Positions 4,257-39,284 of a DNA stretch of 39,284 nucleotides are shown one piece after another. The notes beneath the pieces are model-generated. The model was not told the origin of the DNA, made no database searches, and was given only the letters and a program-made list of their open reading frames with translations. The translations under genes were made by a program, and so were the position numbers. The first letter of the stretch is position 1. The number at the start of each line of letters is the position of its first letter. This DNA comes from an uncultured Candidatus Saccharibacteria bacterium (GTDB lineage Bacteria; Patescibacteriota; Minisyncoccia; Minisyncoccales; CAZPAG01), in NCBI GenBank assembly GCA_964584545.1, contig CAZPAG010000007.1, forward strand, positions 6,127-45,410, read 5' to 3'.

Positions 4257-4293
4257 AATTTGACGACAAACCCTTTGACCGAGACGCATCACT

Positions 4294-4357
4294 GGGAAGC
4301 CCAAAACAGCCCTAATTTTTTCCTTAAAACTGGGGTTCAGAACTGAGGTACACAGCT
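4294..4357 (+). repeat. Direct repeat B, copy 2
   Basis: See 3101-3165. Lies 38 nt after the stop of the ClpP-fold gene. Confidence 0.75.
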
Positions 4358-4390
4358 AAAAATTTCAAGATTGAAGGGCTTGATTTTTTT

Positions 4391-4399
4391 TGATAATAT
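4391..4399 (+). promoter_or_regulatory. Extended -10 promoter element TGATAATAT
   Basis: Follows a T8 run. Lies 35 nt upstream of the small zinc-ribbon ORF. Confidence 0.4.
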
Positions 4400-4433
4400 T
4401 ATAGAAGGAAGGTATTAAAAAAGGAGAGATAAT

Positions 4434-4583
4434 ATGCAAGGGAATGATATCTGTTTAAACTGTGCTCTCAATGATCCAGAAAAAACGCATTGTAATGAAT
4501 GTATGATGAGGTATGTGCTTCAGGATAAAGAAAAGGAATCAAACGAAGAAATTATCCTCCAGCAAGAGGCCGCGCAGTTGTAA
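4434..4583 (+). CDS. Small CxxC...CxxC zinc-ribbon protein (49 aa); absent from the ORF track
   Basis: ATG preceded by AAGGAGAG. Translation: MQGNDICLNCALNDPEKTHCNECMMRYVLQDKEKESNEEIILQQEAAQL. The terminator overlaps the stop codon. Confidence 0.55.
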   Translation: MQGNDICLNCALNDPEKTHCNECMMRYVLQDKEKESNEEIILQQEAAQL

Positions 4584-4603
4584 AAAGCGGCCTTTTATTT
4601 TTT
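4567..4603 (+). terminator. Rho-independent terminator
   Basis: Stem aggccgc/gcggcct followed by ttttattttttt. Confidence 0.75.
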
Positions 4604-4611
4604 AAAATAGG

Positions 4612-4684
4612 TTCCAACATCGTCCCAGACCCCCAGCTATGAAAATCGCTAACCAAACGGTTTTTTGGTAGAATAGAATAAGAG
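4612..4684 (+). repeat. Intergenic junction module, copy 2
   Basis: Homologous to 2591-2672. Confidence 0.7.
4666..4674 (+). promoter_or_regulatory. Extended -10 promoter element TGGTAGAAT
   Basis: Same T-run + TGnTAGAAT layout as at 2655. Confidence 0.45.
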
Positions 4685-4714
4685 AAAGTAATAAATTAAT
4701 TATAAAATAGATCT

Positions 4715-4807
4715 ATGGATCAAGAATCTATTCAAATCCCTAAGCAAGAAGCATTAAAACAAATTGCAGACGTTTTAAGCGTTAGCATTGATGATTTAAT
4801 GAAGTAA
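4715..4807 (+). CDS. 30-aa ORF resembling the C-terminal half of an XRE-type HTH (possible controller-protein remnant)
   Basis: The sequence ...EALKQIADVLSVSIDDLMK resembles the recognition-helix end of XRE HTH proteins. A stop lies only 3 codons upstream of the ATG, so the first HTH helices are missing. Confidence 0.3.
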   Translation: MDQESIQIPKQEALKQIADVLSVSIDDLMK

Positions 4808-4813
4808 GAAAGT

Positions 4814-5290
4814 ATGAAAACTAACCATAAAATCATAATTGGCGATTCGCGTAATATGGCGGAATTACAAAATAAATCCGTTCATCTTGTCATCACTTCG
4901 CCACCATATTGGCAATTAAAAGATTACGGAACTTCGGACCAAATTGGTTTTAATGATAGCTACGAGGATTACATCAACAATCTTAATTTAGTTTGGAAAG
5001 AATGTCTTAGAGTGTTAAATGATGGTTGCCGTCTTTGTATAAATATTGGTGATCAATTTGCTCGTTCAGTTTATTATGGCCGTTATAAAATTATTCCTAT
5101 TCGAACGGAAATAATAAAATTTTGCGAAACCATAGGATTTGATTATATGGGTGCGATTATTTGGCAAAAAGCTACAACGATGAATACTACCGGTGGAGCG
5201 ACCATAATGGGTAGTTTTCCTTATCCAAGAAATGGAATAATCAAATTTAGCAAAACAATAAATCTTGATTTTCAATATAATACTCTATAA
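4814..5290 (+). pseudogene. Truncated beta-class N4/N6 DNA methyltransferase (motif IV TSPPY present, SAM-binding motif I region missing)
   Basis: VHLVITSPPYW, RLCINIGD and IIWQK...GSFPYPRNG are typical of the N6_N4_Mtase family. The ORF ends at 158 aa, before the expected C-terminal FxGxG module. Its last 44 nt overlap the convergent 335-aa gene. Confidence 0.7.
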
Positions 5291-6254
5291 TCATAAAATT
5301 GTATTTTTTAAGATTAGAAATTTTAGCTATACTTTTTTGAAAATAATCCCCAAGATATTTTTTAAGACGAATATTATTTTCATCTTTTAGAACAATTAAG
5401 AAAAAATTCATTTGCGTTTGATTTGTTTCAAGGCGATCGGAGTACAGAGAATATGTACAATATTTAACAATTTCCTTCTCAATTGCAGGAATCATACTTT
5501 TTTCTAACCCTGTTTTTTTAAGTTCAAGTACATTTGTATTATCTTTATTAAAAATTATAATATCAGAAGGATAGGCGTTGCCAAAAATAAATTGGTTGTA
5601 AATAGTTGAATAATTTAGTTCGTTTTTGGGATGAGTATTTAAAATATTATTTAGGCTATTATAAGTAACATCTTTTTGGCTTTTCAGGCAAAGGATGATA
5701 AATGCCTCTAAATCACTTTCGGAAGAAAAAAATAGTTTTTTGTATAATTTATTTTTGTCGGCAATGAATTTTTGATCGACTTTTAACTTATCGTGTTCTG
5801 GGATGTAATCTTTGTTATTTATCGATTCAGAATTATTCCCATAATTTTTTATAGTATCTAATATAAATTCACCCTCTTGCTTATTAAGACATATTGAATG
5901 CAAATGTTTATTTTGTTGTAATAAGCATATAAGATTAAAAGCAAAATCTCTTTTTTCAGAACCTATTCCATTTAAGTAAATATCTGTTTCGTTAATATAT
6001 TGTAATTTATCATATTCAATTTTAATCCTATAATAATACTTTTGACTTGGAAATATTATCTTTTTATCATAAAATAAAGTTTCTGTAACTTTAAATGGTC
6101 CATAAATGTTTTGCGATTTATAATTAAATTGTGAAATAAAAACAAAATCTCCAATTTCAATATTAGCAAGCCAGTTTGAACTAGTGGCTCCATAAATACC
6201 GTTCTCAATACATTCATTAGCAAATTTGACAGTTGTAAGAATATAATATCTCAT
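5247..6254 (-). CDS. Candidate modification-dependent (Type IV-like) nuclease: N-terminal PUA/EVE-like domain + C-terminal PD-(D/E)xK motif
   Basis: N-terminus MRYYILTT...IEIGDFVFISQ...IYGPFKVTE resembles EVE/PUA-like readers. C-terminus has PSDIIIF-x8-VLELKK (D...ExK). Very AT-rich (15 G/C in 5941-6000). Confidence 0.4.
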   Translation of the reverse strand: MRYYILTTVKFANECIENGIYGATSSNWLANIEIGDFVFISQFNYKSQNIYGPFKVTETLFYDKKIIFPSQKYYYRIKIEYDKLQYINETDIYLNGIGSEKRDFAFNLICLLQQNKHLHSICLNKQEGEFILDTIKNYGNNSESINNKDYIPEHDKLKVDQKFIADKNKLYKKLFFSSESDLEAFIILCLKSQKDVTYNSLNNILNTHPKNELNYSTIYNQFIFGNAYPSDIIIFNKDNTNVLELKKTGLEKSMIPAIEKEIVKYCTYSLYSDRLETNQTQMNFFLIVLKDENNIRLKKYLGDYFQKSIAKISNLKKYNFMIIEYYIENQDLLFC

Positions 6255-6301
6255 GCTATTATACTAGCGAGAGATATTATATTCGTCTAGTAAAATAAAT
6301 T

Positions 6302-6514
6302 ATGAAGAAAATCTTAAACCGACAATTTATTAAAAATAATGAAAGTCTTTTTATTCTTCATGATAAATTTTCTTTTTGGGATTTTTTTAAAATTCTAAGA
6401 AGGAGTAATTATGAGTCAGAACAAGCCTTAAATTTCATTTTCGCAAACTGTTCTTTAAGTGCCATTGTGTTTCAAGAATGTATCATAAACAATAGATATA
6501 AAAAATTAAGCTAA
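6302..6514 (+). CDS. Hypothetical 70-aa ORF; probably the 5' part of a gene interrupted by an in-frame TAA
   Basis: Same reading frame as 6635..7021. Only the single TAA at 6512-6514 separates the two open stretches. Confidence 0.35.
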   Translation: MKKILNRQFIKNNESLFILHDKFSFWDFFKILRRSNYESEQALNFIFANCSLSAIVFQECIINNRYKKLS

Positions 6515-6634
6515 AAATTTTATTTAGACAAAGCCTATCCAAAGCAGCATCTTGAGCAAATTGGAAAAACTTTATTTATTAAGGTTACTGATGTTTGTAA
6601 AGCCGAAATAGAAGATGTTACAGAAGAAGATTGT

Positions 6635-7021
6635 ATGAATTTCATATACAATTTGGTAATAAATAGAACTTTCGACGGTTATCAGTCAGAAATTCAGACA
6701 ATTTATGGACAACTTGAAAAAATTCTTGGAGTTAAAATCGAGCCCGCTCCCGATGAATGGGACAGAGGATATAATGTCGACTATTTCATTAAAATTCACG
6801 AGAAATATATCGGACTTCAAATAAAACCGGCAGGATTTGAATATATTACGCAAATAATCAATGAGAGAGAACAGCAGAAAAAGACGCACGAAAAATTTAC
6901 TACAAAATATGGCGGCAAAGTATTTTATATTATTTCAATAACCGAAGGTAAAAATAAGATTATTCATAATCCCGAAGTTATTGATGAAATTAAAAATGAG
7001 ATAAATAGATTGAGAAAATAA
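6635..7021 (+). CDS. Small PD-(D/E)xK-like nuclease domain protein (possible restriction endonuclease remnant)
   Basis: GYNVDYFIKIHEKYIGLQIKP fits a D...(E/Q)xK nuclease core. The frame is open for 40 codons upstream, back to the TAA at 6512. Confidence 0.4.
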   Translation: MNFIYNLVINRTFDGYQSEIQTIYGQLEKILGVKIEPAPDEWDRGYNVDYFIKIHEKYIGLQIKPAGFEYITQIINEREQQKKTHEKFTTKYGGKVFYIISITEGKNKIIHNPEVIDEIKNEINRLRK

Positions 7022-7057
7022 TTTATGGATAATTTTTGTATTTTTTCTTAAGGGGAT

Positions 7058-7076
7058 GTTGAGGATAGACCTCAAC
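7058..7076. repeat. Palindromic element GTTGAGG-N5-CCTCAAC (right island boundary)
   Basis: gttgaggatagacctcaac: 18/19 identical to 1143-1161, differing in the loop only. Confidence 0.9.
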
Positions 7077-7147
7077 AGAACGCCCTGCATTGGTTTGAGG
7101 GAGATGATATTAAAGAGTACGGGCCAGTTTTGATTAGTAACAAGGAG

Positions 7148-7168
7148 TCGCCAAAAGGGCGATTTTTT
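7148..7168 (+). terminator. Rho-independent terminator of the ATCGCC...GGCGAT family
   Basis: tcgcc-aaaag-ggcga followed by T6. Confidence 0.6.
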
Positions 7169-7176
7169 GATAGTAT
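7168..7176 (+). promoter_or_regulatory. Extended -10 promoter element TGATAGTAT
   Basis: Directly abuts the terminator T-run. Lies 31 nt upstream of the 7207 ATG. Confidence 0.45.
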
Positions 7177-7206
7177 GATAAAGCGGTAATATATTAACTA
7201 ATTTCT

Positions 7207-7737
7207 ATGAAAAAAATAATTATAACAGGCGCTGTTCTAATATTAATAATATCCGGAGTCGTAGTCTGCTTGGGGTACAACCTGAAAAAGGAAAATAAAC
7301 CCGTTGTGGTTGAAGAAACCTTGCCGATTCTTGGAAATAAAGCGCTGGACGGAGCGGTTACTAATTTCCTTTTGTCAAAACAGGATTTCAGCTGGAAAAC
7401 AGAAGAGGGGAGCACTAATTTCTGCGTTTTCCAGAACCTATATCCCGAAAAGGATCTTTTTCCGATATATATCTGGATAAGGTGCGGTGAGTTTAAAATG
7501 GTTGAAGGAGAGCTTAAAGAGTTAAGCGGTATGGCTTCTCCTATTAAGATTGATTACCCGAATGAATTATCTTATTACGATATTGAGAAGTTTTCTTATG
7601 AAAAGCCCGGGGATGGTTCTCTTTATGACAAAGACGTAAAGAGAATATTTCCCGAAGAGACATGGCCCAGGATGAGTTTTGATCTGAGTTATCTTAATAA
7701 TAAGATATTAGAGGCGGCTATCCAGGCCTTGAAATGA
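7207..7737 (+). CDS. Membrane-anchored hypothetical protein
   Basis: 176-aa ORF with an N-terminal TM/signal-anchor (IIITGAVLILIISGVVVCLG). No family recognised. Confidence 0.6.
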   Translation: MKKIIITGAVLILIISGVVVCLGYNLKKENKPVVVEETLPILGNKALDGAVTNFLLSKQDFSWKTEEGSTNFCVFQNLYPEKDLFPIYIWIRCGEFKMVEGELKELSGMASPIKIDYPNELSYYDIEKFSYEKPGDGSLYDKDVKRIFPEETWPRMSFDLSYLNNKILEAAIQALK

Positions 7738-7787
7738 ACTGTGTACAAGTTTTAAAAGAGTAGTATATTATAAATATACATAAACTT

Positions 7788-8270
7788 ATGAGCAAACTAA
7801 TTCCAATATTAATCGTAGTAGCCATAGTGGTGGGAGGAGTCTATCTTTACCAGAGCTATAATAAAAACAAGGCTCCAGTAGAAAATAATAACGAGCAGGC
7901 TACAACTACAGAAGAAGTAGCTAATAACAATAACTTCGAAATACAAGGCATGAAAGTAGAAATTTTAAAAGAAGGGACGGGGGAGGCAGCTAAATCAGGA
8001 GATACTGTCACCGTAAACTATGTAGGCACTTTTGAGGACGGAAATAAATTTGATTCAAGCATAGACAGGGGAGTTCCTTTTGCCTTTACTCTGGGAGCAG
8101 GAACAATTATTAAAGGATGGGATTTAGGGGTTGCAGGAATGAAAGCAGGAGAAAAGAGAAAGTTGACCATTCCTTCTAATTTAGCTTATGGAGAAGCGGG
8201 AGCAGCGGACGGCCTTATTCCGCCAAATGCCACTTTGGTATTTGAGATAGACTTATTAAGTATAAAGTAA
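7788..8270 (+). CDS. FKBP-type peptidyl-prolyl cis-trans isomerase, membrane-anchored
   Basis: GDTVTVNYVGTFEDGNKFDSS...FTLGAGTIIKGWD...GEKRKLTIPSNLAYG...LVFEIDLL is a canonical FKBP domain. There is an N-terminal TM helix. Confidence 0.9.
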   Translation: MSKLIPILIVVAIVVGGVYLYQSYNKNKAPVENNNEQATTTEEVANNNNFEIQGMKVEILKEGTGEAAKSGDTVTVNYVGTFEDGNKFDSSIDRGVPFAFTLGAGTIIKGWDLGVAGMKAGEKRKLTIPSNLAYGEAGAADGLIPPNATLVFEIDLLSIK

Positions 8271-15665: not shown

Positions 15666-16628
15666 ATGTCAAAAAACATCAAATATATCGTTATGGGTGT
15701 GGCCGCTCTGGCCTTGGTAGGTTGCGGGATTTTTTTCTATGCCAAAAATACAAGCGGTTCCATGGAAAAGGTAGCCGCAAAAGCGATAGAATATATTAAT
15801 AAAAATCTTCTTGATCCCGGGATGACCGCTTCCTTGGTAGACGTTGTTGAAGAGAGCGGATTATATAAATTCCGTCTTAAAATAGGAGATCAGGAGTACA
15901 ATTCTTACGTCACAAAAGACGGAAAGCTTTTATGGCCTGAAGACGGTATCAATCTGAGCACCACTACCGCTTCCCAAACAGGCTCAGTCAGCCAGGAAGC
16001 TCCAAAGAGCGACAAGGTTGACGTTAAATTATTTGTGATGTCCTATTGCCCTTACGGCTTTATGGCAGAGAAAGCATTTTTACCGGTATACAATCTGTTG
16101 AAAGACAAAGCGGAAATGGGAGTTTATTTCGTCAATTATGCTATGCACGATAAACAGGAGCTTGATGAGAATTTGACGCAGTATTGCATTCAAAAGAATG
16201 AAAAGGAAAAATATTCAGCCTATCTCGGTTGTTTTGTAAAAGAAGGAAATACAGCAGGATGTCTTACAGAGGCTGGAATCAATAAAACCACTCTTAATTC
16301 TTGTGTTTCGGAAACAGATTCCCAATATGGCGTTACAGCCGGTTATAACGACAAATCAACTTGGTTGAGCGGACAGTATCCCACGTTCAAAGTGAATGAT
16401 GATTTAAACCAGAAATACGGAGTGCAAGGATCTCCGACCTTAGTCGTCAATGACGCGGTTATTGGAATGAGTAGCTGGTCTCCAGAAGGGTTAAAGCAGA
16501 TTGTCTGCAACGCTTTTAACACTCCGCCGGCAGAATGTTCTCAAACCCTGTCTGACGAAGCTGCTTCTCCGGGATTGGGAGAATCTACGACTAACGCTAG
16601 CGCTAGCGCCGGAGGTTGTTCCCAATAA
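15666..16628 (+). CDS. Membrane-anchored thioredoxin-fold (DsbA-like) protein with CPYG site
   Basis: N-terminal TM helix. Thioredoxin-fold block KLFVMSYCPYGFMAEKAF...GVQGSPTLVVND. C-terminal low-complexity tail. Confidence 0.6.
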   Translation: MSKNIKYIVMGVAALALVGCGIFFYAKNTSGSMEKVAAKAIEYINKNLLDPGMTASLVDVVEESGLYKFRLKIGDQEYNSYVTKDGKLLWPEDGINLSTTTASQTGSVSQEAPKSDKVDVKLFVMSYCPYGFMAEKAFLPVYNLLKDKAEMGVYFVNYAMHDKQELDENLTQYCIQKNEKEKYSAYLGCFVKEGNTAGCLTEAGINKTTLNSCVSETDSQYGVTAGYNDKSTWLSGQYPTFKVNDDLNQKYGVQGSPTLVVNDAVIGMSSWSPEGLKQIVCNAFNTPPAECSQTLSDEAASPGLGESTTNASASAGGCSQ

Positions 16629-16635
16629 ATATTTT

Positions 16636-16869
16636 ATGACAGTTAAAGTATTTACCACCCCAAGCTGCCCTTACTGTTATACCTTGAAGGCATTTTTGAA
16701 AGATAGAAACGTGTCTTTTGAAGATGTTGACGTTTCTCAGGACGAAAAAATTAAAGATGAATTAGCTGAGAAAACCGGTCAGCTTTCCGTACCGATAGTC
16801 GAGATTGACGGGCAGTTTATCGTCGGCTTTGATAGGGAAAAAATTTGTAAACTTCTTAAAATTAGTTAA
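16636..16869 (+). CDS. Glutaredoxin-like protein (NrdH/YruB type)
   Basis: MTVKVFTTPSCPYCYTLKAFL...VPIVEIDGQFIVGFD. I start at the ATG at 16636, because the ORF-track start at 16501 overlaps the preceding gene. Confidence 0.85.
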   Translation: MTVKVFTTPSCPYCYTLKAFLKDRNVSFEDVDVSQDEKIKDELAEKTGQLSVPIVEIDGQFIVGFDREKICKLLKIS

Positions 16870-16876
16870 TTTTTTT

Positions 16877-17899
16877 ATGATAAAAGTTGCTGTTAACGGG
16901 TTCGGGCGTATTGGAAGGCCGGCTTTCAGGAGGATTTTTAATAATCATCCTGATTTGGAAGTGGTGGCTATTAATGACCTGACTGATACGAAAACCCTGG
17001 CCCATTTATTGAAGTACGATTCTGTTTACGGCATTTACCAGAAGCCGGTCAAATTTACAGATAATGAATTACTGGTTGATGGGACAAAGACCGGGAAAAG
17101 CGTTAAGGTTTTTGCCGAAAAGGACCCGTCAAAACTTCCCTGGAAAGAAATGGGAGTAGATGTCGTTTTAGAGTGCACAGGGAATTTTACCGATTACGAA
17201 GGAGCTAAGAAGCATTTATCAGCCGGAGCAAAGTCAGTTATTATCTCCGCCCCTTCAAGAGATCCTGATAAAATTCCTTCATACGTTTTAGGAGTTAACG
17301 AGGAAAAGTTCAATCCCGAGAAAGACAGCATAGTTGATATGGGATCCTGTACGACAAACTGTTTAGCTGCCGTGGCAAAGGTTCTTAACGATAATTTTAA
17401 GATCGTGAAAGGATTTATGTCTACCATCCACAGCTATACCAACGATCAGAAGATTTTAGATCTGCCTCACAAGGATTTAAGAAGGGCGAGAGCCGCTGCT
17501 TTGAATATCATTCCTACGACCACAGGAGCTGCAAAAGCCATTGGCAACGTTATCCCCGAACTTAAGGGTAAACTGGATGGCATCGCTTTCAGAGTCCCTA
17601 CTGCCACAGTTTCTGTTCTGGATTTAATTTGTGAATTAGAGAAGGAGACCACGGTTGAAGAAGTGAATTTTACTTTTAAAAAAGCCAGCAAACAAAAAGA
17701 AATGGAAGGGATTTTGGGCATAGAAGACGCTCAGCTGGTTTCTTCTGATTATTCGGGAAATTCTTTCTCGGCAATTGTTGATGCATCTTTAACTATGGTT
17801 AAGGATAATACCGTCAAAGTTGTCGCTTGGTATGATAACGAATGGGCTTATGCCTGCAGATTAGCTGACTTTGCTGAATATATCGGAAAGAAGCTATAA
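16877..17899 (+). CDS. gap: Type I glyceraldehyde-3-phosphate dehydrogenase
   Basis: MIKVAVNGFGRIGR, SCTTNCLAAVAKVL (catalytic Cys), WYDNEWAY. The start is set at the ATG at 16877, not the upstream in-frame start of the ORF track. Confidence 0.92.
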   Translation: MIKVAVNGFGRIGRPAFRRIFNNHPDLEVVAINDLTDTKTLAHLLKYDSVYGIYQKPVKFTDNELLVDGTKTGKSVKVFAEKDPSKLPWKEMGVDVVLECTGNFTDYEGAKKHLSAGAKSVIISAPSRDPDKIPSYVLGVNEEKFNPEKDSIVDMGSCTTNCLAAVAKVLNDNFKIVKGFMSTIHSYTNDQKILDLPHKDLRRARAAALNIIPTTTGAAKAIGNVIPELKGKLDGIAFRVPTATVSVLDLICELEKETTVEEVNFTFKKASKQKEMEGILGIEDAQLVSSDYSGNSFSAIVDASLTMVKDNTVKVVAWYDNEWAYACRLADFAEYIGKKL

Positions 17900-17931
17900 T
17901 TGAAGAATAACAATAAAAATTAGTTTTGAAG

Positions 17932-17954
17932 ATCGCCAGTCGGGCGATTTTTTA
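17932..17954 (+). terminator. Rho-independent terminator (ATCGCC-agtc-GGGCGAT + T6)
   Basis: Perfect hairpin followed by tttttt, directly after gap. Confidence 0.8.
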
Positions 17955-17965
17955 GTTGGGGACAA

Positions 17966-17994
17966 TAGGGGGGGGTTGACACCACATTTCACAT
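17966..17994 (+). promoter_or_regulatory. Sigma-70-type promoter (TTGACA, 17-nt spacer, TGATACACT extended -10)
   Basis: TTGACA at 17966-17971 and TACACT at 17989-17994 with TG at -15/-14. Lies 23 nt upstream of the abiEi ATG. Confidence 0.6.
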
Positions 17995-18016
17995 ATGATA
18001 CACTAATGTCATAGTT

Positions 18017-18628
18017 ATGAAAAGCAGAAAAAACCTTTTAGAACAGCTAAAATTTCTGCCTCACTTCGGTAAAAATACTGTTTACCAGCTCGGTAAGCAG
18101 TTGGGGCTTAAGGACTCTACGGTTGATACTTACATCAGTCGCTTCTTGAAGTACAAAGAAATTTACCGGCTCAAAAATGGATTATACGTGTCCGCGGATT
18201 TTTTTGATAAAAACAGAAATGACATTTCTTATTCTTTCTATCTTGCCAACGTAATTCGCACGCCGTCGTATGTAAGTTCGTGGGCGGCTCTTCAGTATTA
18301 CGATCTTACCACGGAAGCAATACGTTCTGTTGTCTCGGTCACGCCCAAGGTCACGAGAGATTATCAGACAAAGGCGGGCAATTTTGTATATCAGTCGATT
18401 AATAGAAAACTTTTTTCTGGTTTTTCTCTAACAAAAGGAAAGTTTGATTTTTTTATAGCCTCTCCTTCAAAAGCATTGTTTGACTTACTGTATTTTAGGA
18501 CTCGCCAGTTTCGCAGCCTTCCATTAGGGAAGATTAAAGCATTGGCTGAAGAATTACGGATAGACATTAATGAAATGGACAAGGAAGAGCAGGTAAAATT
18601 TTATACAATGATAAAAAAATATGAGTGA
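18017..18628 (+). CDS. abiEi: AbiEi-family antitoxin / transcriptional regulator (type IV TA)
   Basis: 203 aa with an N-terminal winged-helix-like region. It overlaps the downstream AbiEii gene by 8 nt, the typical AbiE operon layout. Confidence 0.65.
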   Translation: MKSRKNLLEQLKFLPHFGKNTVYQLGKQLGLKDSTVDTYISRFLKYKEIYRLKNGLYVSADFFDKNRNDISYSFYLANVIRTPSYVSSWAALQYYDLTTEAIRSVVSVTPKVTRDYQTKAGNFVYQSINRKLFSGFSLTKGKFDFFIASPSKALFDLLYFRTRQFRSLPLGKIKALAEELRIDINEMDKEEQVKFYTMIKKYE

Positions 18629-19889
18629 ACAGATTTTAACAATTCTAAAAAGAAAGCTTGATGATATTGCCGCTTTCGGCGGGATTGACGCGGAAACGCG
18701 TCGCAACGCCCTCAAAGAAGAGCTGCAGTTTTATGTTCTCAATTTCATCTATCATCATCCTGAATACAATAAGTGGATTATGTACGGCGGTTCCGCTCTT
18801 CGTATTATTCACGAACTCGATCGTATGTCGGTTGATCTGGATTTTGAAGTTTCTCACGCGATAACTGATGAGTTCTTGAAGGAGATGAAGAAGGAAATTG
18901 AAGATCATTTCACAAATGCATATGGCGCTGGAGAGGATTTTCTCACGGTGAAAATTACCACGGGTAGAGGATTGATTCTGAAATTTCACGTCGGCGAAGA
19001 ATTGAGCTTTGGGCATTCCTCAAAACAGGTACATGTAAAGCTTGATCTCAATCAGTTCGTCGCTCCCAAGACCGTCACCGAACGCCGGCCGATAAATCGC
19101 AATCAGTTCTCTTTCGTCATTATCACCTATAATATGGCCGCACTTATGGCAAGCAAGCTTGCAGCCATTTTCCTGCGCGGGACCCGTGGCGTAGGAGAAG
19201 CTGTTTATGAAGAAAAGGGGCGAGATGTTTATGATCTCCTTTGGTACATGGGCAAAAAGGTAGTGCCGGATTTTGATTACCTCGTAGCCAAAAGCATTGA
19301 CGCAAAAGATCCCCGCGCGCTTTTTGATAAAATCACGCTTCAAATGAACAAAGTGAGCGATAAGAATCTCGAACAGGACCTTTTGCCACTGTTTGCAGAT
19401 AGGACCTTTATTAAAAATTGGCTCAAAAATTGGCGAGAAAGTTATTTGCGACTTCTTGACGAATATAAAATTAACACCGTAACAGCATTGGAGAGTATAA
19501 GAGTGCGTCAGGATTTTCATACTGATAATTTTTCTTTTGTGTATCTGTATAGAACTGAGGAGGATAGGACGATACGAATTATTTATACTATCAGTGATTA
19601 CTGGATTGATTTTCGCGACGGCGATTTGCCGACGAAAGTAGACGATAAAATAATTCAGCTTGTTGAGGGCGAGATGAAAGATAAGTTGAGTGATAAATTG
19701 AAGCAGTATGCGACATTGTTCCATAAAAAAACAGAAGCATATCTTAGAAAAACAAACAAAATAATACTTGGCAATAGCCTAGTCACTAAAATTATCCGAA
19801 TGACGGCCGATAATTTGAATCAAAAAGAACAGATCGTGCTTAATAAATCGGCTCTGCTTTCTTGCGAGCTCGACGATTTGTTGAAATAA
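18621..19889 (+). CDS. abiEii: Nucleotidyltransferase AbiEii/AbiGii-family toxin with extended C-terminal region
   Basis: YGGSALRIIHELDRMSVDLDFEV is the family's GGTAL...R-S-DLDF nucleotidyltransferase signature. 422 aa. Confidence 0.8.
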   Translation: MSEQILTILKRKLDDIAAFGGIDAETRRNALKEELQFYVLNFIYHHPEYNKWIMYGGSALRIIHELDRMSVDLDFEVSHAITDEFLKEMKKEIEDHFTNAYGAGEDFLTVKITTGRGLILKFHVGEELSFGHSSKQVHVKLDLNQFVAPKTVTERRPINRNQFSFVIITYNMAALMASKLAAIFLRGTRGVGEAVYEEKGRDVYDLLWYMGKKVVPDFDYLVAKSIDAKDPRALFDKITLQMNKVSDKNLEQDLLPLFADRTFIKNWLKNWRESYLRLLDEYKINTVTALESIRVRQDFHTDNFSFVYLYRTEEDRTIRIIYTISDYWIDFRDGDLPTKVDDKIIQLVEGEMKDKLSDKLKQYATLFHKKTEAYLRKTNKIILGNSLVTKIIRMTADNLNQKEQIVLNKSALLSCELDDLLK

Positions 19890-19914
19890 AAACCGGACTT
19901 ATTTATTAAAGAAA

Positions 19915-19937
19915 ATCGCCAGTCAGGCGGTTTTTTT
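19915..19937 (+). terminator. Rho-independent terminator (ATCGCC-agtca-GGCGGT + T7)
   Basis: Hairpin plus T7, directly after abiEii. Confidence 0.75.
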
Positions 19938-19959
19938 GTTGCGCGGTTGATAAGGCCCT

Positions 19960-19978
19960 GTTGAGGCCAGGCCTCAAC
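19960..19978. repeat. Palindromic element GTTGAGGCCAGGCCTCAAC (GGCC subtype)
   Basis: Perfect 9-1-9 palindrome, identical to 38123-38141. Followed by an extra half-site ggcctcaac at 19981-19989. Confidence 0.9.
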
Positions 19979-20041
19979 AAGGCCTCAACAAGCTATTTAC
20001 AAAATTCCGTACGAGGTTTTATTTTTTTTCAATGAGTTGCT

Positions 20042-20060
20042 GTTGAGGCCTGGCCTCAAC
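20042..20060. repeat. Palindromic element GTTGAGGCCTGGCCTCAAC (GGCC subtype, opposite orientation)
   Basis: Exact reverse complement of the 19960 copy. Confidence 0.9.
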
Positions 20061-20086
20061 AGGCTAGTTTTTGCCGTTGAGCTGCT

Positions 20087-20105
20087 GTTGAGGTCGATCC
20101 TCAAA
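20087..20105. repeat. Palindromic element GTTGAGGTCGATCCTCAAA (ATCGA subtype, inverted, one mismatch)
   Basis: Reverse complement of the 1143 copy except for the last base. Confidence 0.8.
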
Positions 20106-20394
20106 GATCTTTTTAGGGCGCTTGATAGGGCCCTTTTATTATTCTAATTTGAAGCATAATTAGAATAGAATGGATTATAGGAGGATAGTCCATTAATCCA
20201 TGGTTTTACCGGCGGGCGCGAAAATTAAACGAAGCGTTTGGCACAGTTTTTAGCTGTGTTTTTTCTTTTTTCGAAAAATATTATTTGAGCAAAATATATA
20301 AAAAAAGGAGGTAAATAAAGGCCGATAAATCAAATAATATATAAAAACAAAGGTCGTTAGTGATAATTAAAATAACATAATTAAAAAAAATACC

Positions 20395-20979
20395 ATGAAA
20401 AAAATATTAATTAGTTTATCGATTATCGGCGCTGTGGCTGCAATAGCAGTTGGCGGCACAATCGCTTACTTCAGCGATACTAAAACCTCAACCGGAAATA
20501 CGTTTACTGCTGGAACATTGATATTTAATATTATTGATCCTGGAGAGGGAGGGCACAGGGTTTTCAATGTCACTGGCATGAAGCCTGGAGATACGGTCAC
20601 AAATTATCTGGTTGTAACAAACGATGGCACAATAGATCAAAAATGGAAAGCCTGGTTAACAGAAACAGGAGACGGGACATTAGATAATGAGTTGCAGGTA
20701 AGATGGACGATACATCCAACAGACTATACTACATTGCCTCCAGGGTATGTTAATGCCGGGCCTCCGAATAGCGTCATCAAGGATTGGACTTACATCGGAG
20801 CCTTAGGAGAAATGACTTGGGCAAGTCCAGGAGCAGTTGCTTTCGAGCCGGGTTGGGCCGCAGTTTATAAGATAGATGTAAAAATGGATGCAGATGCAGG
20901 TAATGATTACCAAAGCGCTAATTACACTGGGGACTTAAACTTCTTTGCGACTCAATACGAAAAGGGAGATTGGGAATAA
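20395..20979 (+). CDS. TasA/camelysin (peptidase M73-like) family fibre subunit with SipW-class signal peptide, paralog 1
   Basis: N-terminus MKKILISLSIIGAVAAIAVGGTIAYFSDTKTSTGNTFTAGTL. Internal MKPGDTVTNYLVVTNDG. C-terminal FFATQYE. Confidence 0.85.
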   Translation: MKKILISLSIIGAVAAIAVGGTIAYFSDTKTSTGNTFTAGTLIFNIIDPGEGGHRVFNVTGMKPGDTVTNYLVVTNDGTIDQKWKAWLTETGDGTLDNELQVRWTIHPTDYTTLPPGYVNAGPPNSVIKDWTYIGALGEMTWASPGAVAFEPGWAAVYKIDVKMDADAGNDYQSANYTGDLNFFATQYEKGDWE

Positions 20980-21017
20980 TTAATTACGGTTAAATGCCTT
21001 GTTAAGAAAAAATAATT

Positions 21018-21602
21018 ATGAAAAAGATAGTTATTAGTTTGGTTGTTATCGGCGTTGTCGGAGTTGTAGCCATTGGCGGAACTATTGCTTATTTCAGCGA
21101 TACTGAAACATCAACCGGAAACACATTCACTGCCGGGACTTTAGACTTGGGTAATATACCTCAGATAGCTATAATATCTTATAATAATGTTTATCCAGGA
21201 TGGAATTATCATGATGCCAGCCATTGGGGGTATGACCATATTAGTGCCGTTGTAGCCAGAAATAATGGTTCTCTGGCATTAAAATACAGAGTAATTGCAG
21301 CTACAACTACTCCGATTTCCGATTATGTATTAGATAATATCTTGGCCGCTGTTTATGTTGATGGTATTACTGGCACGAGTGGCCATGTGCAAAGATACAA
21401 GGGTACTCTTAGGGGCCTGTTCAATTACATTACAATAGATTCAAACTTCGATACCTCTCCACACACGGGTTGGTGGGGTAGCGGAGAGAGAGTGTTCTTT
21501 GAACTTGCCGTGCCTACGACAGTAGGAAATGAATTTCAGGGTCAGTCTGTTAATTTTAGTTTAAGATTCGAAGCAACTCAGACAAATAATCCTGCTTGGT
21601 AA
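21018..21602 (+). CDS. TasA/camelysin family fibre subunit with SipW-class signal peptide, paralog 2
   Basis: GGTIAYFSDTETSTGNTFTAGTL and C-terminal FEATQTN. Same length (194 aa) as paralog 1, but the core is strongly diverged. Confidence 0.85.
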   Translation: MKKIVISLVVIGVVGVVAIGGTIAYFSDTETSTGNTFTAGTLDLGNIPQIAIISYNNVYPGWNYHDASHWGYDHISAVVARNNGSLALKYRVIAATTTPISDYVLDNILAAVYVDGITGTSGHVQRYKGTLRGLFNYITIDSNFDTSPHTGWWGSGERVFFELAVPTTVGNEFQGQSVNFSLRFEATQTNNPAW

Positions 21603-21707
21603 TACTTAAAATTTTTTAGGTTGTCCAACGTTTGTCAAACTAGAGCAAAGCCTGATTTGGGGATGTTCTTCCTTTAAGATATAGTTTGGGCAACTTATAA
21701 AGATTTT

Positions 21708-22295
21708 ATGAAAAAATTATTAAAAATATTTTATTATATTCTAGTCGGTTTTCTCGTATTGATTGCGCTTTTGCTTATTTTTTCCGTTTTTCCGATTACC
21801 GGGAATTTTAAGGTCTTAACCGTGCTTTCCTGGTCAATGGAACCGACAATAAAAACAGGAGCGATAGTTGTCGCAAAGCCGGCAGATGATTACAAGATAG
21901 GGGATATTATTACCTTTGGGCCAGATACAAAAACACAGCCGCCAGTAACTCACAGAATAAACGACATTAAGGTTGTGGGAGGAGTCCCGGTTTATATAAC
22001 CAAAGGGGATGCGAACGAATCGCCGGATATCAGAGAAATCCAAAAAAACGATATCCTCGGGAAAGTTTTGTTCAATATCCCTTTTGTCGGGTACGCGGTT
22101 GATTTCGCCAAAAAACCAGTCGGGTTTATTTTAATCATCGCCGTTCCCGCAATAGTAATAGTTGCTGACGAGATAAGAAAGATATGGAAGGAGGTAATGA
22201 AATTAAAGGATAAGAAGAAAGATACAGAACAAGACAAGGAGATAGCAAGATTGAAACAGGAGATAGAAGAGTTAAAGGATAAAGGTAATTCATGA
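21708..22295 (+). CDS. sipW: SipW-type (S26B, archaeal/ER-like) signal peptidase I with charged C-terminal tail
   Basis: LSWSMEPTIKTGAIV (catalytic Ser), PVTHRI (His), TKGDANESPD. There is a second TM helix, then a Lys/Glu-rich coiled-coil-like tail. Confidence 0.85.
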   Translation: MKKLLKIFYYILVGFLVLIALLLIFSVFPITGNFKVLTVLSWSMEPTIKTGAIVVAKPADDYKIGDIITFGPDTKTQPPVTHRINDIKVVGGVPVYITKGDANESPDIREIQKNDILGKVLFNIPFVGYAVDFAKKPVGFILIIAVPAIVIVADEIRKIWKEVMKLKDKKKDTEQDKEIARLKQEIEELKDKGNS

Positions 22296-24427
22296 TTAAG
22301 TCTTTAGTAAAAATTATTTCAATATTATTGGTTGTAGGGCTGAACTGGGCCGGGCTTTCGGCCGTATGGCAAACCTCAGCTTATTTTAATGACGTAGAAA
22401 CCTCTTTGGTAAATACTTTTTCAGCAGCGAATTTGGATTTTTCGTTAAATGGCGGAGTGGATTTTTCGCCAGGGACATTAAATCTGGGAGGGTCAGCGAC
22501 GAGAAATATTTCTCTTCAAAATGATGGGAGTTTAGGATTTCAATATAAAGTTGGCTACGAAGAAGTTTCCGGCAATCTCTGCGATTATTTAAATTTAACA
22601 GCCGGAGTATATTCAGGACTATTGAAAGATTTTACCAATCAAGGGCCGTTTACTTTTTCTGGAACGCCAAGTTGGGATTTTACTGTGTCTTTGCCGTTAG
22701 ATGCTCCAGACGATTTACAAGGAGAAGTCTGTAATTTCAAATTTGTTTTTAACGGTTGGCAAGAAAATTTAACAGAGGGTCAAGGTTTCAGCGATACGGA
22801 AGAAATTACAAATACTATTTTGGCTGATTATTGGAATCCTCCAGTTGTTTTAAATGAAATTTTACCGAATCCTGAAGGAGACGATTGTTCTCTCTCGGGC
22901 ATTAACGGCGAATGGGTTGAAATTTATAACAAAACTTCTTCTCCGTTAGATTTGGCCGATTGGTATATCGAAGACGCAGACGGTAATAGAATTACCATAC
23001 AGACGATAAATACTTTAGGAGGTTCTACGACTATCGACGCCAACGGTTGGCTGGTGGTGTTCCTGAACTATTGTATTTTGGACAACACCGCAGATACGGT
23101 TAGTCTATATAATAACAATGGAGTTCAAGCTGATTCCTATTCTTACGCCGTACCGGATTATAATATTAATAATACCCCCGGCTCAACGAATGATATGGCA
23201 ATGTATTTGCCTCTGAACGGCGATACTAATGACCAAAGCGGAAACGGGAATAATGGGACGAATAATGGGGCCGTGTTTGAATCAGGCAAAATCAATCAAG
23301 GATTAAGTTTTGATGGAACAGATGATTATGTAAATTGTGGAACCAATGGGAGTTTGAATATTCTTAACGAACTTACGATAGAGGCATGGATAAACCCAGA
23401 CACAGTGCTTAAGTCTTATTATCATAGTTCAATAGTGGATCGTGGAAACAGCTACTGGTTCTTAATATTGAAGACAGGGGAATTGGCCTTTTTACGTTTC
23501 AATCAAAATGACCCAGAGACGGGTTATGGACGTTTTAGCCTTCTTTCTACTGCCGCCACCATTCCGACAGGAACATGGACTCATGTTGCTGCCACATATT
23601 CCGTATTCGGCGGAAACGCGGTAAAACTTTATATCAATGGAGAATTGAGCGGAGCAGGAAGCTTTACAAATGGGCCAATTGATAGCTCGGGCAGCGCTTT
23701 AACAATAGGAAATAGAATGGGTTTGCATAATTTCGATGGTTCTATTGACGAAATCAAGATATACAATCGAGCCTTAGATGATTCAGAGGTTGCAAGCCAT
23801 TACGGACAGGTTCCGGAAAATAAATCTTATGCCAGAATTCCAGACGGCAGTTCAAATTGGGTAGACCCTGTTCCTACGCCCGGCGGACCGAATATTGAGA
23901 TAGCAGAAATAAATAATTTTGCTGACGCAATAGAACTATCGGAGCAGAAAGAAATTTTTGTAATGGGTGAAATCGCAGAAGAAGAAGCTGTATCTGAAGA
24001 CACGGTAATCGGACAAATGGCCATTGGGCAAAATGGAGAATTAGCTATTATCACCGAAGAAATAACTACAACAGAAGAAAATCAGGGGCAAGGAGGAATA
24101 ATAGAGGAAATAAATGAAATAATTGATGAGGTAATTAATGAGATAGTAGACGAAATAATGCCGGATGAAGAAATAGGGGATGAAGTAGTTTTAGAATTAG
24201 AAGCTCCAGTTATCGAAGATGTCTCAATTATTGAGGAGGCGCCCGCAGATGAAATTCCGGTAATTGAAGAACAACCAGTAATTGAAACGCCGTCCGCAAC
24301 CGAAGAACAGCCGGTGATTGCGTCGGATAATGTTTCTGTTGAGCAAACTCCTGCGCCAGAGAGCGGAGGAGACAGTGGCGGAGGTGAAACGGTAAACGCG
24401 GCTCCATCAGACGGAGTAACAGAATAA
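22292..24427 (+). CDS. Large secreted multidomain protein: TasA-like N-domain + lamin-tail domain + LamG/concanavalin-like domain + acidic repeat tail
   Basis: SAYFNDVETSLVNTFSAANL (SipW-class N-terminus). VVLNEILPNPEGDD...GEWVEIYN...LADWYIED (LTD). LPLNGDTNDQSGNGNNGT...LSFDGTDDYV...LTIEAWI...WTHVAATY...FDGSIDEIKIYNRAL (LamG_3). C-terminal E/I/V-rich tail. 4-nt ATGA overlap with sipW. Confidence 0.8.
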   Translation: MIKSLVKIISILLVVGLNWAGLSAVWQTSAYFNDVETSLVNTFSAANLDFSLNGGVDFSPGTLNLGGSATRNISLQNDGSLGFQYKVGYEEVSGNLCDYLNLTAGVYSGLLKDFTNQGPFTFSGTPSWDFTVSLPLDAPDDLQGEVCNFKFVFNGWQENLTEGQGFSDTEEITNTILADYWNPPVVLNEILPNPEGDDCSLSGINGEWVEIYNKTSSPLDLADWYIEDADGNRITIQTINTLGGSTTIDANGWLVVFLNYCILDNTADTVSLYNNNGVQADSYSYAVPDYNINNTPGSTNDMAMYLPLNGDTNDQSGNGNNGTNNGAVFESGKINQGLSFDGTDDYVNCGTNGSLNILNELTIEAWINPDTVLKSYYHSSIVDRGNSYWFLILKTGELAFLRFNQNDPETGYGRFSLLSTAATIPTGTWTHVAATYSVFGGNAVKLYINGELSGAGSFTNGPIDSSGSALTIGNRMGLHNFDGSIDEIKIYNRALDDSEVASHYGQVPENKSYARIPDGSSNWVDPVPTPGGPNIEIAEINNFADAIELSEQKEIFVMGEIAEEEAVSEDTVIGQMAIGQNGELAIITEEITTTEENQGQGGIIEEINEIIDEVINEIVDEIMPDEEIGDEVVLELEAPVIEDVSIIEEAPADEIPVIEEQPVIETPSATEEQPVIASDNVSVEQTPAPESGGDSGGGETVNAAPSDGVTE

Positions 24428-24428
24428 T

Positions 24429-25622
24429 ATGGATAAAATAACAAAAACAATTTTAATCTTCTCGGTAGTATTCATAGGGATATCTCTTTTTGTTGCCCCT
24501 CCGGCTTTAGCCGCGGCTAATTTGGTTGTTAATTTTGAAAATAGTCCTTTATTTAATGAAGCGAATTTTGTTCCGGGAGAAAGCGTCAGCCGTTGGGTAA
24601 AAGTCGCCAATAACAGCGGCAGCGCTCAAAGAATTGCCGCAGAGACCGTAAGCGAAAATAATCCTGACAATTTCGCTTCTAAATTAAATTTGACGATTAA
24701 AGAAGGAGCGACAGTTATTTTTAACAATACTCTTGCCGCGTTTTTTGACCAGGGAGAAACTTATTTGTCTAGCTTATCTATCGGAGGCCAGACGCAGTAT
24801 GATTTTATAATCACTTTTGATTCTGGGGCAAATGACGATTATCAGGGAAAAATTTTAGGATTTGATATTATAATTGGGTTTGAAGGTACTGATGGCGGAT
24901 TACCTCCGCCTCCTTCAGGCGAAGGTGGCGGCGGAGGATTGCCTGTGGGTTTGACCATAGTGAATGAATCTAATCCATATATTGGAGAAACGAGCGTAAC
25001 TATAACGTGGAATACTTCATATGCCGCCACAAGCCAAGTGATATATTCTATAGCAGGGGAGACTCATATTTTAGATTTAACTGATAATGCCGGTACGCCC
25101 CCGACTTACGGGTATTCTCACACAACTCCGGAATACGATATAAGCCCGAAAGTTACTTACCATTCGGTCACTATCGCGGGGTTAACGTCGGGAACGACAT
25201 ATTACTATCGTGCGGTGTCGCACGGCTCATTGGCGATCAGCGAGGAATATAGTTTCGTTACAAAGGGCGTGGCTGGAGCAGCAACTACTGGCAGTGAAAC
25301 CGGAGAAACGGCAGAGGAAGTTAAAGGCACGACATCCTCGGGGAATCCTTTACCTTCAGAAGGCGAACAGGGGAATGTATTACCAGAAAATAGTGAGGGT
25401 TTATCTACCGGTACTAGTCAGGGAACAGAAGGGGGTGGAATTGGAGAAGCGGTAGAAAACAATGAAGAAAAAGGCGGAAACGCCCAAAACTCATGGCTGG
25501 CGGCAATTGGAGGAATACCTCTTGGTTGGAAGATTCTTTTATTAATACTTATTGTTGTCGGCTTGATGCTGCTAATCCTGTGGCTTATCGGGAAAAGAAG
25601 GAAAAAACGCACCAAAATTTAA
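24429..25622 (+). CDS. Secreted beta-sandwich + FN3-like protein with C-terminal TM anchor and basic tail
   Basis: Signal peptide ...ALAAANL. A TasA-like block FVPGESVSRWVKVANNSG. A Gly/Pro linker. An FN3-like block VTITWNT...TYYYRAVS. C-terminal WKILLLILIVVGLMLLILWLIGKRRKKRTKI. Confidence 0.7.
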   Translation: MDKITKTILIFSVVFIGISLFVAPPALAAANLVVNFENSPLFNEANFVPGESVSRWVKVANNSGSAQRIAAETVSENNPDNFASKLNLTIKEGATVIFNNTLAAFFDQGETYLSSLSIGGQTQYDFIITFDSGANDDYQGKILGFDIIIGFEGTDGGLPPPPSGEGGGGGLPVGLTIVNESNPYIGETSVTITWNTSYAATSQVIYSIAGETHILDLTDNAGTPPTYGYSHTTPEYDISPKVTYHSVTIAGLTSGTTYYYRAVSHGSLAISEEYSFVTKGVAGAATTGSETGETAEEVKGTTSSGNPLPSEGEQGNVLPENSEGLSTGTSQGTEGGGIGEAVENNEEKGGNAQNSWLAAIGGIPLGWKILLLILIVVGLMLLILWLIGKRRKKRTKI

Positions 25623-25641
25623 TACTAAGTATAAATAATTA

Positions 25642-25666
25642 ATCGGGGCTTTGCCCTGATTTTTTA
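25642..25666 (+). terminator. Rho-independent terminator ending the fibre locus
   Basis: atcggggc-tttg-ccctgat hairpin followed by T5. Confidence 0.7.
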
Positions 25667-37917: not shown

Positions 37918-38127
37918 ATGTCAAAAATTATTTTAGGTACAACTTCTCCTTACCGCAGAGAAGCTTTTTCGTTTTTGGGTATTGATTTTGAGGCAGAAGG
38001 AAGCAATGTTGATGAATCCCAGATAGACAGAAATAATCCTGAAGAATTGGTAAGTCAGCTTTCAAAATTAAAAGCCGAAGCTGTTGCTAAAAACCATCCT
38101 GCGAGGTTTCTGTTGAGGTTATGTTGA
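37918..38127 (+). pseudogene. maf: Maf-like nucleotide pyrophosphatase, 5' fragment only
   Basis: MSKIILGTTSPYRREAFSFLGIDFEAEGSNVDESQI...LSKLKAEAV matches a Maf N-terminus. Similarity stops near 38101, and the frame then reads through palindromic elements to a stop. Confidence 0.7.
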
Positions 38128-38141
38128 GGCCAGGCCTCAAC
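38123..38141. repeat. Palindromic element GTTGAGGCCAGGCCTCAAC
   Basis: Identical to 19960-19978. Preceded by the half-site gttgagg at 38112-38118. Confidence 0.9.
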
Positions 38142-38168
38142 AAGCTGCTTATGGACTGGCGCTGGGGC

Positions 38169-38474: not shown

Positions 38475-39284
<810 letters not shown>

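Follow-up and report, generated by a model that had tools for sequence, protein, structure and literature searches.

What kind of surface structure might be encoded by a compact run of five genes in a bacterium of the Candidate Phyla Radiation (CPR)? The genes, here named g1 to g5, occupy positions 20395-25622 of a 39,284-nucleotide stretch of contig CAZPAG010000007.1 (hereafter the window), from an uncultured Candidatus Saccharibacteria bacterium. A first-pass annotation, made from the DNA and its open reading frames (ORFs), had described them as a complete TasA/SipW-type extracellular fibre locus. We arrive at a similar answer. The locus is probably an operon encoding an extracellular fibre of the TasA type, assembled by donor-strand exchange and tethered to the cell; we place the probability of this reading at about 0.7.

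All five of the co-oriented ORFs described previously are present on the + strand, and unless noted otherwise the features below are on that strand. The first two genes, g1 (20395-20979) and g2 (21018-21602), each encode a 194-aa TasA-family fibre subunit; the g1 product is the candidate major shaft subunit and that of g2 the candidate minor or adapter subunit. An S26B signal peptidase I, of the SipW-like, endoplasmic reticulum/archaeal type, is encoded by g3 (21708-22295, 195 aa). The g4 product (22292-24427, 711 aa) is a minor subunit and a candidate tip adhesin and nucleator. Finally, g5 (24429-25622, 397 aa) encodes a type-I membrane protein, the candidate cell-proximal terminal acceptor and anchor. 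The genes are closely packed: g3 and g4 share an ATGA overlap at 22292-22295 (read as tcATGAtt) and a single nucleotide, at position 24428, separates g4 from g5 (TAA t ATG). A terminator had been placed at 25642. At 25641-25661 we find an intrinsic-terminator-like hairpin, with a 9-bp GC-rich stem and a T-run, that closes the operon. Every peptide motif that had been quoted for g1 to g4 is found in the ORF translations.

Is this arrangement fortuitous? The first-pass annotation had proposed a synteny survey across Patescibacteria. We scanned GTDB species representatives with family-specific peptide patterns and confirmed matches with a g5 profile, a design that cannot tell whether the anchor is restricted to the CPR. 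At least 107 species representatives were confirmed to contain relatives, and 79 loci were kept. Nearly all relatives belong to the Patescibacteria (Paceibacterota, Nealson-, Campbell-, Portnoy-, Gribaldo-, Buchanan-, Doudna-, Morani-, Wolfe- and Woesebacteria, and CPR3). A few matches lie on 2.6-12 kb contigs in bins named for other phyla; these may be mis-binned contigs. Loci were divided into those with at least 4.5 kb of upstream sequence (long-flank, n=38) and those with 1.5-4.5 kb (short-flank, n=24). The full order tasA(1-3)-sipW-g4-g5, on the same strand, was found in 36 of the 38 long-flank loci, with different flanking genes. For all 24 short-flank loci, a g4-type gene was directly upstream of g5. 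The spacing between g4 and g5 varies, with 89 nt of overlap at one extreme and a gap of 79 nt at the other, but is mostly within about 30 nt. The five-gene cassette also occurs, beside other neighbours, on contigs where the g1 product is 70% and 55% identical to that of the window. Because 36 of 38 independent genomes with enough flank show this order, the five-gene locus is not a product of chance.

Some genomes contain additional copies. In locus L008, a second and smaller cassette (16355-19487, - strand) is found in a genome that already holds a full one. It consists of tasA, sipW, a protein with the g4 N-terminal domain and a lamin tail domain (LTD; 372 aa), and a protein with the g5 N-terminal domain only (299 aa, without FN3). 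Locus L045 has an extra pair of sipW and LTD genes. Therefore, some CPR genomes encode more than one such system. In a relative (locus L005), a secretin-domain gene (PF00263; 8167-9507) is directly upstream of the orthologous cassette. A secretin is unexpected in a lineage usually taken to have a single membrane.

Are g1 and g2 fibre subunits? Their N-termini share the sequence GGTIAYFSDT[K/E]TSTGNTFTAGTL, and their C-terminal strand motifs are FFATQ (g1) and FEATQ (g2). We ran the hidden Markov model searches that had been suggested for the locus. Both proteins exceed the cutoff of PF12389, the TasA/Peptidase_M73 family (50.8 bits for g1 and 47.9 bits for g2; cutoff 22.5), and that of TIGR04088, the SipW-cognate signal (38.9 and 42.1 bits, respectively; cutoff 19). 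With the TasA equivalog model NF046066, scores were 21 bits for g1 and 34 bits for g2 (cutoff 450). By sequence, g1 and g2 are members of the TasA family and not TasA orthologues.

In g1 and g2, the Pfam alignment is confined to the first 60-80 residues, and PF12389 is named after a metalloprotease. These facts would suit TasA-like proteins that are non-polymerising secreted or surface monomers, such as camelysin-like proteases or lectins, and that merely share SipW-dependent export. Other data disagree. A profile of 98 g1-family members (A1, 235 positions) was compared with solved structures; positions 45-217 aligned with chain residues 5-205 of Bacillus subtilis TasA (5OF1/8AUR, E 3e-12). 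Hence, the similarity extends through the C-terminal F-E-A-T-Q strand. The TasA jelly-roll expected by the first-pass annotation is also evident in the AlphaFold2 (AF2) model of g1 (predicted local distance difference test score 85). Thus, the best Foldseek match in the PDB is the TasA fibre 8AUR (E 7e-7, TMq 0.57), the second is AbpA (7UEG), and further matches include the donor-strand pilins CanA, Sulfolobus threads and CFA/I. In fold, then, g1 resembles pilins that form fibres. No HExxH motif is present in any of the five proteins. Since the motif is lacking, and both fold and sequence match TasA fibres, the metalloprotease reading of the name 'Peptidase_M73' is ruled out. Taken together with the conservation of the donor-strand segment described below, these observations make the monomer explanation highly improbable. 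Curated models, the A1 profile and the AF2/Foldseek comparison agree that there are two TasA-type subunits.

In B. subtilis TasA the donor strand comprises residues 28-38, directly after the SipW cleavage site (PMC9674648). Alignment of g1 to TasA assigns residues 1-24 to a SipW-type signal, with predicted cleavage between GGTIA and YFSD, and residues 25-43 to the donor-strand segment (20467-20523). The equivalent segment of g2 aligns at 21090-21146. In the AF2 model of g1, residues 26-43 are a low-confidence coil, and they correspond to the TasA donor strand and linker. Within the g1 family, no part is more conserved than the donor-strand segment. It is under purifying selection between g1 and g2. 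Thus, the two proteins are 33% identical overall and nearly identical over the first 42 aa, and the first 45 codons contain 16 synonymous differences. This number of silent changes rules out recent gene conversion; the N-terminal identity has been kept by selection. Full-length g1 orthologues in related cassettes are 70% and 55% identical, whereas for the second paralogue identity between those genomes is only ~30%. This pattern fits g1 as a constrained major subunit and g2 as a fast-evolving minor or adapter subunit.

How would the strand be exposed? The middle gene had been assigned to the SipW-class S26B peptidases, and the data bear this out. The g3 protein contains the motifs SWSMEP, THRI and GDANESPD and scores 123.4 bits with TIGR02228 (cutoff 51.85). 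Its best PDB relatives are SEC11A and SEC11C (E 1e-8), and the catalytic motifs align (SWSMEP/SGSMEP, HR and KGDxN, here KGDAN). The score with the Bacillus SipW equivalog model NF046067 was 117.7 bits, below the cutoff of 190. We assign g3, from these comparisons, to the S26B family and not to the SipW orthologues. Transmembrane segments are found at the N- and C-terminus, and a charged C-terminal tail follows. In all 36 complete cassettes, g3 is positioned between the tasA genes and g4. Hence, the peptidase gene adjoins its TasA-type substrate genes in the window and in 36 of the 38 surveyed cassettes.

The g4 protein had been described as an adhesin-like protein of 711 aa with a TasA head and LTD and LamG domains. 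Pfam searches and profile alignment support this architecture. The N-terminus carries the SipW-class motif SAYFNDVETSLVNTFSAANL. Residues 1-30 are a SipW-like signal, with predicted cleavage between QTSA and YFND, and the donor-strand motif YFNDVETSLVNTFSAANL occupies residues 31-~50. The TasA-like head spans residues 28-178 (22373-22825). When the N-terminal 150 residues were compared with the TasA family using hhalign, the match had a probability of 99.4% (E 9e-22) and included the donor-strand columns. The LTD follows at residues 183-300 (22838-23191; 57.5 bits). Nested within it is a LamG domain at residues 301-505 (23192-23806; Laminin_G_3, 109.5 bits). The LTD closing strand is at residues 508-534 (23813-23893), with the sequence KSYARIPDG...PTPGGPN starting at residue 511. 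Thus, the closing strand comes after LamG in the window and directly after the LTD in orthologues with no LamG. An acidic tail, with a net charge of -49, completes the protein (residues 536-711, 23897-24424). A homologue with 51% identity to g4 (P0245) bears the NCBI name 'TasA family protein'.

The LTD is present in g4 from 30 of 36 cassettes, and LamG in only 5 of 36. Hence, the conserved core of g4 is the TasA head with the LTD, and the LamG domain of the window is a lineage-specific tip decoration. Two further properties of g4 were apparent. First, the N-terminal domain of the family has two conserved cysteines, C147, which is invariant, and C97, which is at least 90% conserved; these may form a disulfide. 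Second, the 176-residue C-terminal tail is rich in Glu, Ile and Val and has no recognisable domain or anchor; it may bind cations, act as a spacer or interact with the envelope.

What distinguishes g5 from the other products? It had been described as a TasA-like/FN3 protein with a C-terminal membrane anchor. An ordinary AXA-type signal peptide (residues 1-28) precedes a TasA-like beta-sandwich with no donor strand (residues 30-155, 24516-24893) and an FN3 domain (residues 175-282, 24951-25274), for which the match was Pur_ac_phosph_N (46.4 bits). A disordered linker of ~80 residues, composed of Gly, Glu, Ser and Thr, comes next (284-363, 25278-25517). The protein ends with a transmembrane helix (residues 365-392, 25521-25604) and then a basic tail, KRRKKRTKI. 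The AF2 model agrees: both beta-sandwich domains are predicted with confidence, the linker is disordered and the C-terminal segment is helical. The N-terminal domain had no Pfam or NCBIfam match; its likeness to TasA surfaced only by profile-profile comparison. Thus, hhalign matched it to the TasA family (97.4%, E 1.5e-11) and to the g4 N-terminal domain (97.2%). The alignment with TasA begins only after the donor-strand columns. When the g5-family profile was compared with the PDB, only low-complexity and FN3 matches were obtained. The family is large, with 3757 clusters at 50% identity (E <= 1e-10), or 895 at E <= 1e-30. Proteins in the top 150 clusters are nearly all full-length, at about 380-450 aa. 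Two very long proteins, P0388 (4418 aa) and P0441 (4053 aa), repeat the g5-type FN3 module up to 28 times.

We surveyed the donor motif in the window, its relatives and the 79 GTDB loci using the strict regular expression [small]-[YFW]-F-[STNHQ]-D. A relaxed expression was too permissive (6 of 77 g5 matches), and counts are those of the strict version. The motif was present in 60 of 75 TasA ORFs and 36 of 64 g4-type ORFs, with more of the latter carrying variants such as ALFDD and AFFGD. Not one of the 77 g5-type ORFs contained it. The distribution of C-terminal transmembrane segments was the reverse: none in TasA or g4-type ORFs and 70 of 77 in g5-type ORFs. Among the g5 ORFs lacking the segment, some end at contig ends. 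Signal cleavage sites in g5-type proteins are of the ordinary AXA type. Since g5 has a TasA-like domain with no donor motif, and is the sole membrane-bound part, we propose that it accepts but cannot donate a strand. Obvious binding modules are found only on g4, which also carries the donor motif.

Could the fibres instead be released? TasA filaments, and those of the archaeal bundling pili (ABP) and haloarchaeal tafi systems, bundle and support biofilms. The surveyed cassettes contain one to three tasA genes, many of which encode tandem TasA domains. These features would be in keeping with bundled TasA-like fibres that are released to form a biofilm-matrix scaffold, as they are in Bacillus, with g4 and g5 as accessory surface proteins. 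However, g4 and g5 nearly always accompany tasA and sipW, with overlapping genes, and TasA-like domains in both argue for their incorporation in the polymer. We consider a released scaffold quite improbable.

By analogy with known fibres, we infer polymerisation, polarity, tip and base roles, and host attachment for the cell-tethered fibre. In this model g1, g2 and g4 would be exported by Sec via the SipW-type signal peptide. The g3 peptidase would cut just before the Y-F-S/N-D segment, freeing the N-terminal strand for the next subunit. Release would occur at the membrane, the site of subunit emergence. In B. subtilis the first strand is believed to come from TapA (PMC9674648); here, g4 would give the first strand, nucleate the polymer and end at the distal tip, where the LTD and LamG would be displayed as an adhesin. 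Serial strand donation by g1 would build the shaft, with g2 as a minor or adapter subunit. The acceptor domain of g5 would capture the last free strand and so end the polymer. Its FN3 spacer, flexible linker and transmembrane helix would tie the fibre to the cytoplasmic membrane. A polar fibre, running from g4 through g1 and g2 to g5, is the simplest reading because g5 is membrane-bound and has no donor, and g4 has both a donor and binding modules.

Several points weigh against this model. The B. subtilis TapA protein is thought to be cell-proximal, the opposite of the polarity proposed here. The N-terminus of g4 falls just under two cutoffs (21.6 bits for PF12389, cutoff 22.5; 18.7 bits for TIGR04088, cutoff 19). 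The adhesin function of the LTD/LamG module is assumed from domain type only. For g5, the match between the model and the TasA fibre 8AUR is modest (E 5e-5, TMt 0.42, rank 28), and the top fold matches are generic tandem beta-sandwiches. We also weighed an inverted arrangement. Here, g4 would be a TapA-like, cell-proximal nucleator held at the envelope by the LTD/LamG module or the acidic tail, and g5 would be no permanent anchor but a membrane-bound platform or chaperone for assembly, holding the donor strands of newly exported subunits only for a time. Conversely, no transmembrane segment, LPxTG motif or recognised wall-binding domain was found in g4. Furthermore, g5 is both the only membrane-anchored part and the only one lacking a donor strand. 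These are the needs of a terminal acceptor, and they match TafF of the tafi system (PMC11821415). We therefore regard the inverted arrangement as unlikely, and prefer the fibre with g4 at the tip and g5 at the base.

How much of this is new? The first-pass annotation had known of no description of such a system in this lineage. That holds in part. In MAGs of Paceibacterota and related groups, the genes already have automatic NCBI names: 'TasA family protein', 'SipW-dependent-type signal peptide-containing protein', 'lamin tail domain-containing protein' and 'fibronectin type III domain-containing protein'. Furthermore, PF12389 homologues had been noted in Patescibacteria, among other phyla, by Wang et al. 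(2022; PMC9245690). Conversely, in full-text literature searches we found no description from the CPR of the operon, of a donor-less membrane-anchored TasA-like protein, or of a TasA-head/LTD protein. The main text of a Paceibacteria metatranscriptome paper (mBio, 2024) does not mention the cassette genes. The locus is thus routinely annotated by automatic means, and a characterisation was not found in the literature searched. Neither the fibre family nor the assembly principle is new; the g4/g5 accessory pair and the phylum-wide conservation are undescribed.

Within the literature searched, type IV pili are the only attachment appendages with experimental support in CPR/Patescibacteria. The cassette would represent a second, machinery-light fibre system of five genes that needs no ATPase or secretin. 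It is a concrete candidate for how ultrasmall cells contact hosts or build biofilms. A broader proposal is that the cassette encodes a hitherto unrecognised, Patescibacteria-wide, membrane-anchored, non-type-IV pilus that is a main host-attachment organelle of Paceibacteria-type episymbionts. Host specificity would then be set by the tip modules of g4 (LTD alone, LTD with nested LamG, or others) and the fast-evolving second pilin. We put this forward tentatively, as a possibility with the odds somewhat against it.

The cassette is separated from the preceding genes by a 505-bp spacer (19890-20394). Terminator-like hairpins at 20040-20062 and 20240-20260 are palindromes that close the preceding AbiE genes. 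A palindrome, TGTTGAGGCCWGGCCTCAACA, is repeated in the spacer upstream of g1. The cassette promoter is presumably in the A/T-rich last ~130 bp; a scan for sigma-70 promoters upstream of g1 found no convincing site. No Shine-Dalgarno-like sequence is present before g1, g2 or g3 (20380-20394, 21003-21017 and 21693-21707). At 20307-20314 there is a strong AAGGAGGT, but no start codon comes after it. The spacer is crowded with three copies, some degenerate, of a perfect 21-nt palindrome, TGTTGAGGCC(W)GGCCTCAACA. This sequence is intergenic and exact at 19959-19979, 20041-20061 and 38122-38142, and occurs with 3 mismatches at 7057-7077; 0 matches are expected by chance. Possible explanations are a REP-like element and a shared terminator hairpin.

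Directly upstream of the cassette, at 18017-19889, is a gene for an AbiEii nucleotidyltransferase toxin (422 aa). It overlaps an upstream gene for a 203-aa partner that has no Pfam match. The two are probably an AbiE-type toxin-antitoxin or abortive-infection pair. Further away, the region 4000-8000 has a low GC content (0.32) and contains fragments of an N6_N4 DNA methylase (4814-5290, 158 aa) and of a MjaI restriction endonuclease (6635-7021), the latter matching the C-terminal half of the profile only. The region has the appearance of a decayed restriction-modification island.

The window is chromosomal. It encodes FtsX, ClpP, FtsZ, enolase, GAPDH, PPDK, RF, S2 and EF-Ts, and contains the 5' part of a 16S rRNA gene (38475-39284). 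The rRNA has 62-nt and 108-nt expansions in V1/V2 helices, and the 515F primer site reads CAGCAGGAGCGGUAAUAC, not CAGCAGCCGCGGUAAUAC. Such expansions, and a deviant 515F site, are typical of CPR rRNA. The closest named homologues are from Candidatus Paceibacterota. Both observations agree with the CPR-like genome recognised at first pass. The GC content of the cassette (0.41) is close to that of the window (0.396), and base composition gives no signal of recent horizontal acquisition.

Which known systems does the cassette resemble? Type 1 and P pili of the chaperone-usher type, like the proposed fibre, are polar polymers built by donor-strand exchange; in both designs the tip subunit bears a lectin and a dedicated subunit terminates the chain. 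The polarity is opposite: the tip adhesin of those pili accepts a strand, whereas the proposed tip donates one, and the families are unrelated. Chaperone and usher domains are absent from the five genes and their neighbours, which rules out a chaperone-usher pilus; nor is there an outer membrane. Sortase pili are also ruled out, since the last 60 residues of g1 to g5 have no LPxTG-like motif and no sortase is found among the annotated neighbours. The top Foldseek match of the g5 model is WxLIP of Firmicutes WxL clusters (DUF916-DUF3324-TM; E 2e-6), with low TM-scores of 0.18-0.27. WxLIP shares with g5 two beta-sandwich domains, a C-terminal transmembrane helix and, as proposed for g5, partner binding by strand insertion (PMC10599100). 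In contrast to the proposed role of g5, WxLIP donates the strand, to WxL, in an AF2 model, and a fibre is not involved. No sequence-level relation between g5 and WxLIP was detected.

Parallels with the archaeal bundling pili and with Bacillus had been drawn at first pass, and both are apparent. The ABP of Pyrobaculum (AbpA/AbpB; Wang et al., 2022) have a TasA-like jelly-roll pilin, for which AbpA is the second-best fold match of g1. They also use donor-strand complementation and have a multi-domain TapA-like minor protein. The similarity is at the profile and fold level only. In contrast to the cassette, the ABP locus has no dedicated signal peptidase (PMC9245690), and an acceptor with a transmembrane anchor is undescribed there. 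The Bacillus tapA-sipW-tasA operon (Diehl et al., 2018; Boehning et al., 2022) also has PF12389 subunits with a jelly-roll fold and a SipW signal directly before the donor strand. It likewise encodes a dedicated S26B-type peptidase and an accessory protein with a TasA-like donor strand. The gene order is different here, with one or more tasA genes followed by sipW, g4 and g5, and the host is a CPR bacterium. We did not detect a TapA homologue in the cassette. Unlike the Bacillus accessory protein, the strand-donating g4 carries a full TasA-like head and an LTD, with LamG in some genomes. Furthermore, the membrane-anchored, donor-less TasA-like/FN3 protein g5 has no Bacillus counterpart.

The closest functional parallel is with the haloarchaeal Tat-fimbriae, or tafi (TafA-TafG; Galeva et al., 2025; Sonani et al., 2025). 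That system, as modelled, comprises a tip protein, TafC, with a pilin-like N-terminal domain and laminin-G, a pilin-like adapter (TafE), a shaft (TafA), a dedicated signal peptidase (TafD) and TafF, a terminating anchor that is pilin-like and has a C-terminal transmembrane segment (PMC11821415). TafF was modelled to accept the last donor strand (PMC11821415), and cryo-EM in Natrinema confirmed that strands are donated (PMC12337348). The tafi pilins are structurally related to AbpA and TasA. Hence, the LTD/LamG head protein and the membrane anchor, which the first-pass annotation had singled out as what differs here, are present but not unique, given TafC and TafF. The systems differ in their signals, Tat in tafi and Sec/SipW-type here, and in their hosts, archaeal and bacterial, respectively. 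The LTD and FN3 modules of the cassette are additional to the tafi parts. The first 35 residues of g1 to g5 contain no twin-arginine (RR) motif, and g4 matches the TafC model NF052521 (41.3 bits, cutoff 410) through its LamG portion only; beyond LamG, no sequence homology to tafi was detected. Together, these observations rule out membership of tafi. The likeness is one of functional analogy, in the parts list, in the logic of tip, adapter, shaft, peptidase and anchor, and in strand donation. The cassette suggests that such tip/shaft/anchor logic also exists in a Sec/SipW-dependent bacterial form, and supports a broad, ancient TasA-superfamily pilus design in single-membrane organisms. By analogy, the cassette would work like TapA-SipW-TasA of Bacillus and, even more so, like haloarchaeal tafi.

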